Below, in pieces: positions 38,378-43,777 of a DNA stretch of 64,000 nucleotides. Positions within the stretch are counted from its first letter, which is position 1. Every line of letters starts with the position of its first letter. The notes below the pieces were generated by a model. It was not told the origin of the DNA, made no database searches, and worked only from the letters and a program-made list of their open reading frames with translations. The position numbers were made by a program, and so were the translations under genes. Origin of the DNA: Salinispira sp. GTDB lineage: Bacteria > Spirochaetota > Spirochaetia > DSM-27196 > Salinispiraceae. Where the stretch lies: positions 3,360,001-3,424,000 of the forward strand of contig OZ271918.1 of the NCBI GenBank assembly GCA_965602015.1. The letters are read 5' to 3'.

Positions 38378-38728
38378 ATGAACATTCAGATATTCGGCAG
38401 TAAAAAATGCAAAATCACAAAGAAGGCCGAGAGATGGTTTTCCGAACGGGGGATTTCCTATCAATTGGTGGATCTATTACAGAAAGCCATGAGCCCAAGG
38501 GAACTGGATTCGGTTCTCCGCTTTGTCAGCCCGGAAGAGCTTATCGACGAGAACTCGCCGGCGTACAAAAACCGCGGTCTGGCGTGGATGGATTTTGACA
38601 TTCGGGAAGAGCTGCTCGAACATCCGGAACTCATCCGGACTCCGGTTGTGCGGAACGGCAGCCTGGATGCCAGCGTCGGTCAGAATGAAGAAAAATGGAA
38701 GCGTTGGTACGCGGAGTCCAGGGCATGA
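38378..38728 (+). CDS. ArsC/Spx-family protein
   Basis: MNIQIFGSKKCKITKKAERWF.ERGI, LLEHPELIRTPVVRNG; GGAG RBS before 38378. Confidence 0.9.
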   Translation: MNIQIFGSKKCKITKKAERWFSERGISYQLVDLLQKAMSPRELDSVLRFVSPEELIDENSPAYKNRGLAWMDFDIREELLEHPELIRTPVVRNGSLDASVGQNEEKWKRWYAESRA

Positions 38729-39618
38729 ACGCAAAAACCCTGGCTGCCCTTTTGGTTACCATGACCTTTTGGGGCTCTTCCTTCGTGGCGAGCAAGTTCA
38801 TTCTGGAAATCTGGCCGCCCTGGGCGTTTATGTTCCTGCGCTTTTTTTTCGCATCCCTGGTCTTTCTCGTTTTGCTCATACGGAGAAAGAAGCTTTATAT
38901 TCCCCGGGATGTAATCTCCCGCCTTCTTCTCATTTCGCTTTTTGAGCCGGCGCTGTATTTTGTATTCGAAACCCTCGGCCTTCAGCGGACGACGGCGGCG
39001 AGTTCGTCCATTATCATCGCCGCCATTCCCGCAGTGGTCGCCCTCTTTTCGGCACTATTTCTGAAAGAACATCTCAGCGTCAAAGGCTGGGTCGGCACCC
39101 TGCTGTCGATTGCCGGCATCGCGATAATTACCCTGTTGGATTCAAACGCCGCCAGATCATCAAGCTCGCTGCTGGGAAACTTCTTCGTCGTCCTCGCGGT
39201 ATTTTCGGCGACGGGATACATCGTGTTGGCGAGAAGCATAGCCGGACGGATTTCCGCATTGCAGCTGACGGCCTACCAGTCATTTTTCGCGGCCCTGTTT
39301 TTCTCCCCGGGGATATTTTTGCAGGGATCCGCGCTGTTCGCCGCCTCCTATGATCCGTTCTTGATACCGGCATTTTTATTCATCGTCCTGGGAGCCACTG
39401 TTGCGGCATTCCTGGCATATAACTATGCCCTGAGTCAGATTCCCGCGCCAAAGGCGGCGGTATTTATCAACGGAATACCGGTGGTGACGGTAATCGTCGC
39501 ATGGGCCGTTCTCGGCGAAACGCTGAACATCTACCAAATCTTTGGAGGTGGGCTTGCGGTCGGCGGACTGATGCTGGCTAACCGCCGGGAAACCGCAAAA
39601 ATTAATCTCGAAGCGTAA
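38725..39618 (+). CDS. DMT/EamA-family transporter
   Basis: FWGSSFVASK, ten TM helices, LGE motif; ATGA overlap with the arsC-like gene. Confidence 0.9.
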   Translation: MNAKTLAALLVTMTFWGSSFVASKFILEIWPPWAFMFLRFFFASLVFLVLLIRRKKLYIPRDVISRLLLISLFEPALYFVFETLGLQRTTAASSSIIIAAIPAVVALFSALFLKEHLSVKGWVGTLLSIAGIAIITLLDSNAARSSSSLLGNFFVVLAVFSATGYIVLARSIAGRISALQLTAYQSFFAALFFSPGIFLQGSALFAASYDPFLIPAFLFIVLGATVAAFLAYNYALSQIPAPKAAVFINGIPVVTVIVAWAVLGETLNIYQIFGGGLAVGGLMLANRRETAKINLEA

Positions 39619-39744
39619 ACGATGTGCGCCGGTATTTTAGCGGCTATTTAAAATAAAAATTATGTAGTGATGGTATGAAAGCGGTGCCTCCCCCGAGATC
39701 CTGCCAGTCAGGGTCTATATTAAATACCGGAGGAGGACAACCAA

Positions 39745-40797
39745 ATGAGTAGTATTATTATATCCCTCGACAGCCATAAACGGTATACCGTGGCTGCAAT
39801 TGAGGACGAAAAAGGAAGGAAATCCTCACAGCGCATAGAACATTCTCACGGGTGTATTCGTGATTTCCTCCAACAATTTGAGCCGGGACAGGAAGTCGCA
39901 CTTGAAACGATCGGAAGTTGGTACTGGATCGTGGATGAGATTGAGGAGGCCGGCATGAACCCCTTGCTGGTTCATGCCGGTAAGTCAAAATTGATGATGG
40001 CCATGTTTAACAAAACTGACAAACTCGATGCTGAAGGTCTCAATAAACTTCAAAAAACAGGCACACTGCCTACTGTGTGGATTCCACCAGGAGAATTACG
40101 TGATAAACGAGAACTCTATCGAACCCGGATGCAGTTCGTTCAGGAGTTGATACGTGAAAAGAACCAAATTCATGCCGGGTTCGAGAAATATGGGTTTCGA
40201 TTCAATGATGTGAGCGATCTGTTCGGAAAAGCAGGTACAGAAGCCTTGAAGAAGGTAATGCCAAAACTCCCCGAGCATACCCGCACCATGATGAAACTCA
40301 AGCTCGATAATCTCGCGTTTATTAAGCAATCTATCACCGACTGCGAACAACGAATGCATGAAGCGTTTGATGAAAATGCTGAAATGAAGTTGGTGAAATC
40401 CATTCCCGGGATCGGATTTATTCTCAGCGCAGTCATTGTGCATGAAATTGGAGACATACATCGCTTTAAGACCGCTGAACATTTTGCATCATACTGTGGT
40501 ACAACGCCGCGCGTTCACTCGAGCGGAGGTAAAACTCATTATGGTCGAACATCGAAAGCATGTAATCGATACTTGAAGTGGGCACTTACTGAAGCAGCTA
40601 ATGTAACCTGTCTTAATCAAAGAAATTGGGCGAACCGACATACGGTAAAACTCTACAAGAGAGTTCGTACTAAACGAAATCATAAGGTTGCTATAATCTC
40701 TGTGGCACGGCACTTAGCAGAAGCAATATTTTGGATATTGCAGAAAGAACAGCATTACAAAGATCCTGCATTAGCGGGTTTGTCCAGACAGGGGTAA
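39745..40797 (+). CDS. IS110-family DEDD recombinase/transposase
   Basis: SLDSHK, VALE, KTDKLDA (DEDD); [21 protein letters not shown] catalytic-Ser loop; GGAGGAGG RBS. Confidence 0.95.
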
Positions 40798-40900
40798 GCG
40801 CGTTTTTGGGGCTACAGCGCGAATACGAGGCTGTGCAAAGTGATTGCGACACCCCTGGAAGGACATTTTCATGCCACGTGGATGGCGGAGATATGACTCG
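40781..40900 (+). ncRNA. Predicted bridge/seek RNA of the IS1111-type element, copy 1 (ends approximate)
   Basis: Hairpin TGTCC-aga-CAGGGGT / ACCCCTG-gaa-GGACA enclosing target-matching segments (40802-40812, 40837-40842); junction-matching segments at 40867-40876 and 40889-40896. Confidence 0.7.
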
Positions 40901-40971
40901 GACAAAACCGATTTGCAGAATTTTTGTAATAGAACATTGAAAACTCTTGCGGGGAGGCACCGCTTTCAGAT

Positions 40972-41178
40972 ATGGCATATAACTATGCCCTGAGTCAGAT
41001 TCCCGCGCCAAAGGCGGCGGTATTTATCAACGGAATACCGGTGGTGACGGTAATCGTCGCATGGGCCGTTCTCGGCGAAACGCTGAACATCTACCAAATC
41101 TTTGGAGGTGGGCTTGCGGTCGGCGGACTGATGCTGGCTAACCGCCGGGAAACCGCAAAAATTAATCTCGAAGCGTAA
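40972..41178 (+). pseudogene. Duplicated 3' fragment of the DMT transporter gene (ATG created by the IS junction)
   Basis: Identical to the last 67 codons of 38725-39618; CTG became ATG at the IS right end. Confidence 0.8.
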
Positions 41179-41304
41179 ACGATGTGCGCCGGTATTTTAG
41201 CGGCTATTTAAAATAAAAATTATGTAGTGATGGTATGAAAGCGGTGCCTCCCCCGAGATCCTGCCAGTCAGGGTCTATATTAAATACCGGAGGAGGACAA
41301 CCAA

Positions 41305-42357
41305 ATGAGTAGTATTATTATATCCCTCGACAGCCATAAACGGTATACCGTGGCTGCAATTGAGGACGAAAAAGGAAGGAAATCCTCACAGCGCATAGAA
41401 CATTCTCACGGGTGTATTCGTGATTTCCTCCAACAATTTGAGCCGGGACAGGAAGTCGCACTTGAAACGATCGGAAGTTGGTACTGGATCGTGGATGAGA
41501 TTGAGGAGGCCGGCATGAACCCCTTGCTGGTTCATGCCGGTAAGTCAAAATTGATGATGGCCATGTTTAACAAAACTGACAAACTCGATGCTGAAGGTCT
41601 CAATAAACTTCAAAAAACAGGCACACTGCCTACTGTGTGGATTCCACCAGGAGAATTACGTGATAAACGAGAACTCTATCGAACCCGGATGCAGTTCGTT
41701 CAGGAGTTGATACGTGAAAAGAACCAAATTCATGCCGGGTTCGAGAAATATGGGTTTCGATTCAATGATGTGAGCGATCTGTTCGGAAAAGCAGGTACAG
41801 AAGCCTTGAAGAAGGTAATGCCAAAACTCCCCGAGCATACCCGCACCATGATGAAACTCAAGCTCGATAATCTCGCGTTTATTAAGCAATCTATCACCGA
41901 CTGCGAACAACGAATGCATGAAGCGTTTGATGAAAATGCTGAAATGAAGTTGGTGAAATCCATTCCCGGGATCGGATTTATTCTCAGCGCAGTCATTGTG
42001 CATGAAATTGGAGACATACATCGCTTTAAGACCGCTGAACATTTTGCATCATACTGTGGTACAACGCCGCGCGTTCACTCGAGCGGAGGTAAAACTCATT
42101 ATGGTCGAACATCGAAAGCATGTAATCGATACTTGAAGTGGGCACTTACTGAAGCAGCTAATGTAACCTGTCTTAATCAAAGAAATTGGGCGAACCGACA
42201 TACGGTAAAACTCTACAAGAGAGTTCGTACTAAACGAAATCATAAGGTTGCTATAATCTCTGTGGCACGGCACTTAGCAGAAGCAATATTTTGGATATTG
42301 CAGAAAGAACAGCATTACAAAGATCCTGCATTAGCGGGTTTGTCCAGACAGGGGTAA
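41305..42357 (+). CDS. IS110-family DEDD recombinase/transposase (copy 2)
   Basis: Identical 350-aa protein to 39745-40797. Confidence 0.95.
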
Positions 42358-42460
42358 GCGCGTTTTTGGGGCTACAGCGCGAATACGAGGCTGTGCAAAG
42401 TGATTGCGACACCCCTGGAAGGACATTTTCATGCCACGTGGATGGCGGAGATATGACTCG
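42341..42460 (+). ncRNA. Predicted bridge/seek RNA, copy 2 (ends approximate)
   Basis: Same sequence as 40781-40900. Confidence 0.7.
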
Positions 42461-42532
42461 GACAAAACCGATTTGCAGAATTTTTGTAATAGAACATTGA
42501 AAACTCTTGCGGGGAGGCACCGCTTTCAGATA

Positions 42533-42680
42533 TGCCCCGAAAACAGCTGATTTAAACAGCGTAAACCGTTTGCATAATGTGATTTGTCTCTCATCCAATG
42601 AAGCCATTGATAAAACTCCTGTTTTTTATTTTCACACAGCGAGTTACACCGCACAAATCAGCTGTTTTCGGGGCAGTACC
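42533..42680. mobile_element. MITE (non-autonomous), left TIR split by the IS1111-type insertion
   Basis: Perfect 21-bp IR TGCCCCGAAAACAGCTGATTT (42533-42553 / 42655-42675); no transposase ORF; TIR nearly identical to that of the IS at 27047-28302. Confidence 0.85.
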
Positions 42681-42712
42681 TAAAAATAACGAGATGGGGG
42701 TATACTGTTCAT

Positions 42713-43777
42713 ATGAAAACTCTGAATCCTGCGCTTAAGGCCGTTATATATGTCGTCGCCGGAATTGCCGCGCTGTGGCTCATCATTCTGCTGCTCAATA
42801 TCCTGCCCTGGGCTCCGGGCTATCCCGGAGTTAATCCTATGCGCATCGAAGCCGGCCAGCGGCCGCACATTGTTCCCCATGGCGGGGCAAAGGAACTGTA
42901 CCCCGAAAATACCCTGCTGAGTTACCGGAGAATGCAGGAAAACGGGTGGAACACCTTCGAGGTCGACCTGTGCCTCACCGCCGACGGTCAGCTTATAACC
43001 CATCACGATTTGTCCATCGAGAGAACGTCGGGCATCCCGGGGGTACTGGTCCGCGATATGAGTTATGCGGAGCTGAGCGCTATCAACTTCGGCGTGAATT
43101 TCACCGATCCCGGCGGTCGTATGCCATATGCCGATGAGCAAACCCTCTCTCCCGAGCTTCGTCGGCTCCTGGGCCCAGCCCGGCTTGCCGATCTGTTTGA
43201 GAACTACCCTGAGAACTACTACATACTCGAGCTGAAGGATACGGTGGACGCCAGCGGCGCCGCGAATGCCGAGGCCGCTGTGCTGGAGCTTATTCGGCTA
43301 ATTGAAACCTACGGAATGCAGGACAGGGTTGTGGTCAGCAGTTTTGATGACGATGTCACTTCCGATTTTCGCGAGCGCACGGGAGGCAGCATTCCCACCG
43401 GAGCGGCGACCATGGACACCTTGATTTTCTCCGTCCTCTCGGCTCTTAATCTCGATTTTTTTATCGCCCCGGCGTACTCGGCGGTAATGCTTCCCGTGCG
43501 GGACATTATTTATCCGAACGAGCGGGCAATCATCGAACGTCTTCCGAGGGGATTGAGGAACAAGCTGTCGAGTTACGATGAGGCGAGCGACACCCTGTAC
43601 ACCAATCTTGCCAACCGGCGCATGGTAAGGGATGCCCACCGAAAGAACCTCGCGGTCTATTACTGGACGGTAAATGACCGGGAGACCATGGAATTTCTTA
43701 TCAACATGGGCGTCGATGGAATAATCACCGACAGACCTGATATTCTATCCGATCTTCTCGACGAAATGGGCCTCTGA
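42713..43777 (+). CDS. Glycerophosphodiester phosphodiesterase family protein
   Basis: PHGGAK.LYPENTL, EVDL.LTADG..ITHHD, LELK, YWTVND, GVDGIITDRPD. Confidence 0.92.
   Translation: MKTLNPALKAVIYVVAGIAALWLIILLLNILPWAPGYPGVNPMRIEAGQRPHIVPHGGAKELYPENTLLSYRRMQENGWNTFEVDLCLTADGQLITHHDLSIERTSGIPGVLVRDMSYAELSAINFGVNFTDPGGRMPYADEQTLSPELRRLLGPARLADLFENYPENYYILELKDTVDASGAANAEAAVLELIRLIETYGMQDRVVVSSFDDDVTSDFRERTGGSIPTGAATMDTLIFSVLSALNLDFFIAPAYSAVMLPVRDIIYPNERAIIERLPRGLRNKLSSYDEASDTLYTNLANRRMVRDAHRKNLAVYYWTVNDRETMEFLINMGVDGIITDRPDILSDLLDEMGL

Follow-up and report, generated by a model that had tools for sequence, protein, structure and literature searches.

The stretch of Salinispira sp. DNA analysed here (hereafter the window: all 64,000 nucleotides of G000:C1:3360001-3424000, in a genome assembled as one contig of 3.87 Mb) contains an insertion sequence (IS) of the IS1111 group lodged in the left end of a 153-bp miniature inverted-repeat transposable element (MITE). 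The IS copy that adjoins the MITE occupies positions 41228..42534 of the forward strand, on which all features described below lie, bounded at each junction by a TG core (41228-41229 and 42533-42534), with 1303 bp between the cores; its ends are identical in all ten copies present in the genome. Its single gene (41305..42357) encodes a DEDD recombinase (transposase) of 350 aa composed of a DEDD RuvC-like domain (PF01548) and a C-terminal PF02371 domain, which passes the IS110 RNA-guided transposase model NF033542 with 224 bits for a cut-off of 140. The two perfect 18-bp inverted repeats of the element are sub-terminal and asymmetrically inset, the left one (41236..41253) lying six bases and the right one (42511..42528) four bases inside the TG core, and the non-coding DNA is likewise uneven, with about 175 bp past the stop codon versus 75 bp ahead of the start. 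From these sequence features, the element is a member of the IS110 family, IS1111 group.

A second copy of the 350-aa open reading frame (ORF) is present in the region. Nine of the ten genomic copies are full length and 98.6-100% identical, and in the tenth another IS has inserted and part of the sequence is missing. This split copy (L002, G000:C1:1706978-1709280), which also occupies the poorest target site, has lost about 320 bp; the IS that interrupts it carries two ORFs and is presumably IS3-like. The nearest protein relatives of the recombinase are only about 60% identical. Matches at E<=1e-40 were obtained in three of 40 other genomes, all of them at about 50% identity, whereas the right-end motif gave six matches across 98 other genomes of the order, with no IS110 gene in the fetched loci, and a search of genome contigs with the single IS protein gave no match.

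The insertion separates the outer tip of the MITE left inverted repeat (TGTAG, 41223..41227) from the rest of the element (42533..42680), which comprises the inner 21 bp of the left repeat, a 101-bp interior and an intact right repeat (42655-42680). Joining the two parts yields an element of 5+148=153 bp whose left end matches the reverse complement of its right end at 24 of 26 positions. The original prediction had described this reconstruction, and the positions that it gave for the TGTAG motif (41223-41227 and again 39663-39667) and for the resumption of the repeat (42533) all agree with the sequence. It had also recognized the flanking direct repeat formed by TAAAAATTA (41214..41222) and TAAAAATAA (42681..42689), identical at eight of nine positions; the register seen at the level of the family (see below) takes this repeat beyond chance, so that the 153-bp limits are right. 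On the other hand, the TGTAG at 39663 does not mark a second insertion and gives no independent support but is a copy of the tip at 41223, since positions 39413-40972 and 40973-42532 form an exact tandem duplication with a unit of 1,560 bp. Two uninterrupted paralogues of the MITE, 97% and 89% identical to it, occur at other places in this genome.

The terminal repeat of the MITE occurs in 126 copies in the genome (at most two mismatches in 18 bases). It is found at the ends of a 1247-bp element carrying a 377-aa ORF (12 copies), of 30 pairs with 133-145 bp from core to core and of four short palindromes, and in many solo ends. The short pairs are non-coding, present in multiple copies and share their repeat with the 12 gene-bearing elements, as expected of MITEs; their interiors are 67-97% alike, so that most of them are old. 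A scan of 81 combinations of offset, length and class detected a target-duplication register of nine bases situated five bases outside the TG: in the 30 pairs of about 143 bp, the mean identity is 4.27/9 versus 2.83 in 5000 permutations (p=0.0002), and six of the 30 have at least 7/9 for 0.43 expected, none reaching 9/9. The 11 paired elements of 1247 bp show it only weakly (p=0.30 for the mean, at least 7/9 in two of 11). A related family in G002 (group b) presents a perfect 9/9 duplication at the same register in two of eight copies, whereas none was found in four copies of G002 group a or in four of G014 group a, and one 8/9 duplication was found among nine G014 group b copies. The 9-bp register is therefore real at the family level, and, given the signals in this family and in G002, the idea that the pairs are repetitive extragenic palindrome (REP)/REPIN-like and lack a target duplication was rejected. 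The four palindromes, of 42-47 bp (G000:C1:201919-201960, 400647-400688, 2681483-2681524 and 2356764-2356810), consist of two repeat ends without interior and can be viewed as minimal MITEs; flank duplications of 7-8/9 or 5/9 are seen in three of them. An Rfam search returned one chance-level microRNA match, on the MITE hairpin and far under the cut-off. Among 40 related genomes, the repeat was found in one (G001, 63 copies); no IS junction was found in G001, a genome that is 83% complete.

The assignment of this host family to IS1, as originally proposed, is upheld in part: the element is IS1-like and has the 9-bp duplication register, but its 377-aa transposase obtains only 35 bits with the IS1 model NF033558, below the cut-off of 100. 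No Pfam family was detected above threshold in this protein, and its 130 homologues are mostly unnamed. Four cysteines (Cys4), D128, D219, N264 and R271 are invariant in the family. The structure model (predicted local distance difference test, pLDDT, 87.5) resembles integrases and DDE transposases only weakly (best E-value 3e-5, template modelling score 0.2-0.3). The third catalytic residue of IS1 is a glutamate, and the inverted repeat of IS1 has a conserved GG tip. Here, the third catalytic position appears to be the invariant N264 instead of a glutamate, and the 1247-bp family has no conserved GG tip, its outer three bases varying even though the 12 copies are 96-98% identical. The same variable tips are observed in relatives of this family (G000:C1:15719-16965, L001, and 11 further copies) in G002 (L157-L168) and G014 (L143-L156). 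A literature search found nothing on a DDN transposase near the IS1595 or IS1 families, and from its sequence the host element is best described as IS1-like but unclassified. Two different IS1-like elements in two genomes of one genus, L098 (G001) and L119/L158 (G002), share a flank of about 20 bases on one side, which suggests either independent use of one site or an inherited old end.

After the tandem duplication was collapsed, the ten IS copies were counted as nine independent sites. All nine read AG/TG/CCCC (slashes delimit the core), with the IS in the same orientation and no duplication longer than the core, and eight of them continue with S-AAAAC. The claim that the IS sits in end repeats belonging to a multi-copy IS/MITE family, at one position and in one orientation, is borne out at seven of the nine, where the full terminal repeat is present: three of these ends belong to 1247-bp elements, three to short pairs of about 143 bp and one is a solo end. 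The genome-wide count that had been suggested thus gives seven of 126 repeat copies interrupted at the same TG, but two of the nine IS sites lie outside the repeat, one resembling it through +10 and the other only through +4. A metagenome contig (L169) starts in a related IS right end and continues with CCCCCAAAAC, but without the rest of the repeat, and is uninformative. Occupied copies are confined to repeats with an AG tip (7/75, versus 0/51 without AG; Fisher p=0.04). In the genome devoid of the IS, AGTGCCCC occurs at 118 sites, 73 of which continue with N-AAAAC; 71 sites (60% of the 118) are full repeat ends. Eight of the 73 near-identical targets are occupied, including the sole 14-base guide match outside the repeat. 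The target must be short, since two sites lie outside the repeat, and recognition covers 8-14 bases and not the whole repeat. Moreover, because the resemblance of the occupied non-repeat site to the repeat ends at +10, it is the sequence that appears to be recognized, rather than the structure of the repeat or a transposase bound to it.

The region 3′ of the recombinase gene encodes a predicted bridge (seek) RNA (42345..42465, limits approximate) consisting of a stem, a target loop with an inner hairpin and then a donor loop, according to the consensus fold of 54 distinct sequences from relatives. Past the stop codon are found successively GTTTTTGGGGC, complementary to G/CCCC-N-AAAAC, a hairpin and CAAAG-TG. 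The predicted right target guide (42362..42372) is complementary to its target at 10 of 11 bases; it would be unpaired, or form a wobble, opposite the position at which repeat copies have either C or G. Its complementarity to the repeat extends over +6 to +9, with TTTT facing AAAA, and to +10 through a G of the scaffold. The predicted left target guide corresponds to CAAAG plus the TG core (42396..42402), and the predicted left donor guide, AGATATGA (42449..42456), is identical to the circle junction. This order, in which the complement of the top strand comes first, is the order described for IS1111 elements in PMC11187229. The guides of the predicted RNA are therefore complementary to AG/TG/CCCC-N-AAAAC, and they covary with the target in relatives.

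For this comparison, an alignment of 46 proteins led to 80 loci fetched at 47-55% protein identity, to which three more were added; 24 of the 84 loci considered were dropped (20 with short or missing flanks, two with mis-anchored left ends and two without anchor), leaving 60 loci with 41 unique guide pairs. These loci share the end motifs and the RNA scaffold of the window IS. When the four positions on either side of the core were compared, guide and own target agreed at 294 of 328 positions versus 140 after shuffling, a level attained in none of 10000 shuffles (0/10000); with one locus per central 4-mer (18 target types), matches were 124/144 versus 44. The loci are kin, so that the shuffling result should not be read as a probability, and their targets are very diverse. 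In the consensus fold, 23 pairs are each held in 45-54 of the 54 rows, with compensatory changes, and the target guides lie in an internal loop. The left donor guide equals the right end of its own element in all 72 anchored loci, and a sigma-70-like promoter scoring at least 9/12 is present at the computed circle junction for 42 of 45 distinct ends, versus two of 45 integrated forms. The circle junction sequence itself is absent from the assembly of this genome.

Some targets of these relatives could be recognized individually. L030, L044, L045 and L052 are lodged in elements of the IS1634 family, in the right end and at two different positions (TGTAG/TG/CCAAC and /TG/TCGAAG). For L044 and L045 the IS1634 identity exceeds the NCBIfam cut-off, and for L030 and L052 it is by likeness only. 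The flanks of L051, L054, L081 and L091 resemble what we take to be transfer RNA arms, and L046-L049 and L061-L074 have a common site, CTCGGAA/TG/AC, in a dispersed repeat. Relatives targeting the same IS1-like family as the window element were also sought with a profile of 120 host-family proteins, which gave no match in any of the 83 relative loci; the flanks of these loci are short. This candidate was not retained.

Taken together, these data make it highly probable that the IS was placed at the TG core inside the left end of the MITE by RNA-guided recombination; this reading is based on the complementarity between the predicted 3′ bridge RNA and AG/TG/CCCC-N-AAAAC. By analogy with the family, the IS would first form a circle joined at the TG, the junction of which would create a promoter; the recombinase would then bind the predicted RNA, and the circle would recombine with any genomic match. 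Such insertions would fall mostly between genes, because 71 of the 73 full-length matches are ends of the IS1-like element and its MITEs. With less certainty, a later one-ended reaction may have joined the right end of the IS to a TG located 255 bp upstream, leaving the tandem duplication. Neither the guide RNA nor the duplication was part of the original prediction.

The first unit of the duplication (39413..40972) consists of 255 bp of host DNA and 1,305 bp of IS, and the second (40973-42532) is 100% identical to it. The duplicated IS copy (39668..40974) ends at a host TG inside an eamA gene and not at the repeat, and the duplicated host segment (40973..41227) contains the last 68 codons of eamA, the spacer, the left copy of the MITE target duplication and the MITE tip. 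A full eamA gene is kept upstream (38695..39618, EamA-family transporter, PF00892), and the downstream neighbour is a glycerophosphodiester phosphodiesterase gene (42713..43777, PF03009). In G002, the eamA orthologue (L138) is followed by a reverse-transcriptase-like ORF with a leader that looks, by eye, like that of a group II intron. Both window copies of the IS share one private variant relative to the other seven full copies. At the junction, the IS right end plus TG is joined to the TG in eamA; in register, only the TG and four of ten right-target bases match, and the site resembles neither guide beyond the TG. Capture of this site by a long right donor guide was considered and rejected, since the bases that match belong to a stem of the scaffold, where they are paired, and the in-register match is poor. 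At the junction the IS right end is kept exactly and nothing remains of the other half, which corresponds to the "LD-only" boundary defined in bioRxiv 10.64898/2026.08.14.744561, where tandem units of IS110 elements are described as keeping almost only left-donor matches. Tandem repeats are presented in bioRxiv 10.1101/2025.10.25.684509 as transient by-products, seen in three of 96 colonies.

We lean slightly towards a real one-ended event in which the IS right end was joined to the TG 255 bp upstream. There is nevertheless a substantial chance, though short of even, that the 1,560-bp duplication was created by the assembly or belongs to a minor clone, and that the strain has a single IS copy in the MITE. 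The perfect identity of the two units would fit this alternative, as would short-read contigs obtained from one sample in four runs; these contigs carry the other IS flanks of the genome. In three runs these contigs are unbroken across 39413, two of them with one 11.4-kb contig that continues over this position into the IS left end and the third with a 538-base piece at a depth of 16.1 versus 14.5 in adjacent sequence, while the fourth has no cover there. The contigs of three runs also cover the host-to-left-end and right-end-to-MITE junctions, with short overlaps into the IS, whereas the duplication junction was not found among the matches listed for the four runs. These contigs are simplified, however, and rare joints are dropped from them. 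In addition, the breakpoint falls exactly where the right-end TG of the IS meets a host TG, an outcome rarely expected of a random misjoin, and bioRxiv 10.64898/2026.08.14.744561 reports such boundaries, on one side only, at natural IS110 loci.

Besides the missing duplication junction, several observations weigh against the proposed course of events. The left target guide fits loosely, only its last AG being matched at all nine sites (-3 is A in four of nine), and the covariation was measured on kin loci after the loss of 24 of 84 for want of flanks or anchors. The right donor guide is weak: its measurement, in 13 relatives, did not capture the window element and gave a modest excess at two of six positions. 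The whole 3′ region of the window IS folds no better than shuffled sequences (z=-0.87), and the promoter at its own computed junction scores 8/12. Empty-site alleles, which the original prediction had proposed to look for in relatives, were not found: the loci fetched from G001 and G002 contain no orthologous empty site, eamA does not adjoin the phosphodiesterase gene there, and no MITE follows eamA in the stretches examined. Finally, the counts alone show no targeting beyond eight bases: in nine draws from the 118 AGTGCCCC sites, at least seven would fall in repeats with P=0.23.

This last result is what would be expected if the insertions were RNA-guided but their link with the repeat were a by-product, the guide reading about eight bases (AG/TG/CCCC) for which the repeat happens to supply most sites. 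One IS site indeed matches only through +4, and in relatives the match fades past +4 to +6, with 22, 21 and 9 of the 41 guide pairs matching at +5, +6 and +7. However, AAAAC is present at eight of the nine sites (P=0.079 for at least eight long matches through +10 under the eight-base model), and the right guide of the window complements +6 to +9 and, via the scaffold, +10, while +6 and +7 are both matched in only five of 41 guide pairs, that of the window included. We thus regard a mere by-product as unlikely, without being negligible. Targeting by the protein itself, by the DNA structure of the repeat or by a bound IS1-like transposase, the RNA match being incidental, would agree with the seven of nine sites in complete repeats and with the occupation of three of 24 autonomous-element ends versus four of 102 others (not significant, p=0.13), but is very improbable given that the distal repeat is missing at two of nine sites and that guides covary with very different targets in relatives of 47-55% protein identity.

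The idea that terminal repeats serve as safe landing sites is consequently retained only in part: seven of nine sites are in repeat ends, but an adaptation to them is not supported by the counts and rests on the extension of the guide. This extension, complementary to +6 to +9 where few guide pairs match both +6 and +7, does point to an adaptation of the predicted RNA to the repeat. For the MITE, the insertion would detach the outer five bases of the repeat and block its use until the IS excises. Free repeat ends have A at -2 in 98 of 119 cases and G or C at -1 in 117 of 119, and the insertion puts TA at these positions; with its outer bases removed and TA in place of the usual ones, the MITE would probably be immobilized. 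Excision could restore its end. The excision of IS621 is described in PMC13626964 as less efficient than its insertion, and a copy-out process keeping the donor copy is reported in bioRxiv 10.1101/2025.10.25.684509. Much more tentatively, the locus might be a snapshot of two steps in an IS1111 clade re-aimed at the ends of unrelated transposons (here those of an unclassified family that resembles IS1 and has variable tips and a D-D-N triad, in relatives IS1634 ends): the lengthening of a target guide to read ten bases of the end of another transposon, and the one-ended capture of flanking host DNA as a tandem duplication.

The locus adds a readable natural guide-target pair to those of the programmable IS110/IS1111 recombinases, and comes from a clade in which the ends are highly conserved and the guide positions short and well delimited. 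Its 73 near-identical targets, eight of them occupied, constitute a ready in-genome test of guide length, and the duplication, if real, would illustrate left-donor-only flank capture in a minimal, natural form. Existing knowledge is altered neither by the guide-target pair nor by the duplication, as IS1111 elements in MITEs and in IS ends have already been published.

Among known systems, IS1383 is said to target the inverted repeats of IS1384 (Muller et al. 2001), and IS4321/IS5075 reportedly target Tn21-family repeats (Partridge and Hall 2003). Like the window element, these are IS1111-group elements with sub-terminal repeats whose target is the terminal repeat of another element, a likeness drawn by title only; the host element and the site differ from those of the window. 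ISEc11, ISKpn4, ISPst6 and ISPa11, as described in PMC11187229, and the IS110 bridge RNA systems of PMC11208160 have in common with the window IS the DEDD enzyme, the 3′ non-coding region, the top-strand complement placed before the bottom-strand match, insertion in one orientation, duplication of the core only and, for the window IS as a candidate, a promoter at the circle junction. The perfect 18-bp sub-terminal repeats, separated by 12 bases in the circle, differ from those given in PMC11187229 (11-13 bp, 7+3 or 6+3). The IS110 tandem expansion of bioRxiv 10.64898/2026.08.14.744561 likewise joins the element's own right end to a non-matching site and duplicates the intervening DNA in place; the unit here, known from the assembly alone, is one IS plus 255 bp from the end of a chromosomal gene, without adaptive cargo. 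The same arrangement is described in PMC5896051 for QMITE2 of Coxiella burnetii, a MITE of 150-190 bp in which an IS1111-type element has landed close to one of the ends and detached the first bases. That MITE has variable direct repeats of 7-11 bases and hosts 20 of 21 IS1111 copies, compared with seven of nine sites here; its target is described as a GTAG REP palindrome, whereas here the IS enters the end repeat of an IS1-like family, and autonomous elements of that family are present and occupied as well. Since the arrangement is already in print for IS1111 in QMITE2 (PMC5896051), the present locus is a clean but ordinary case of known behaviour.

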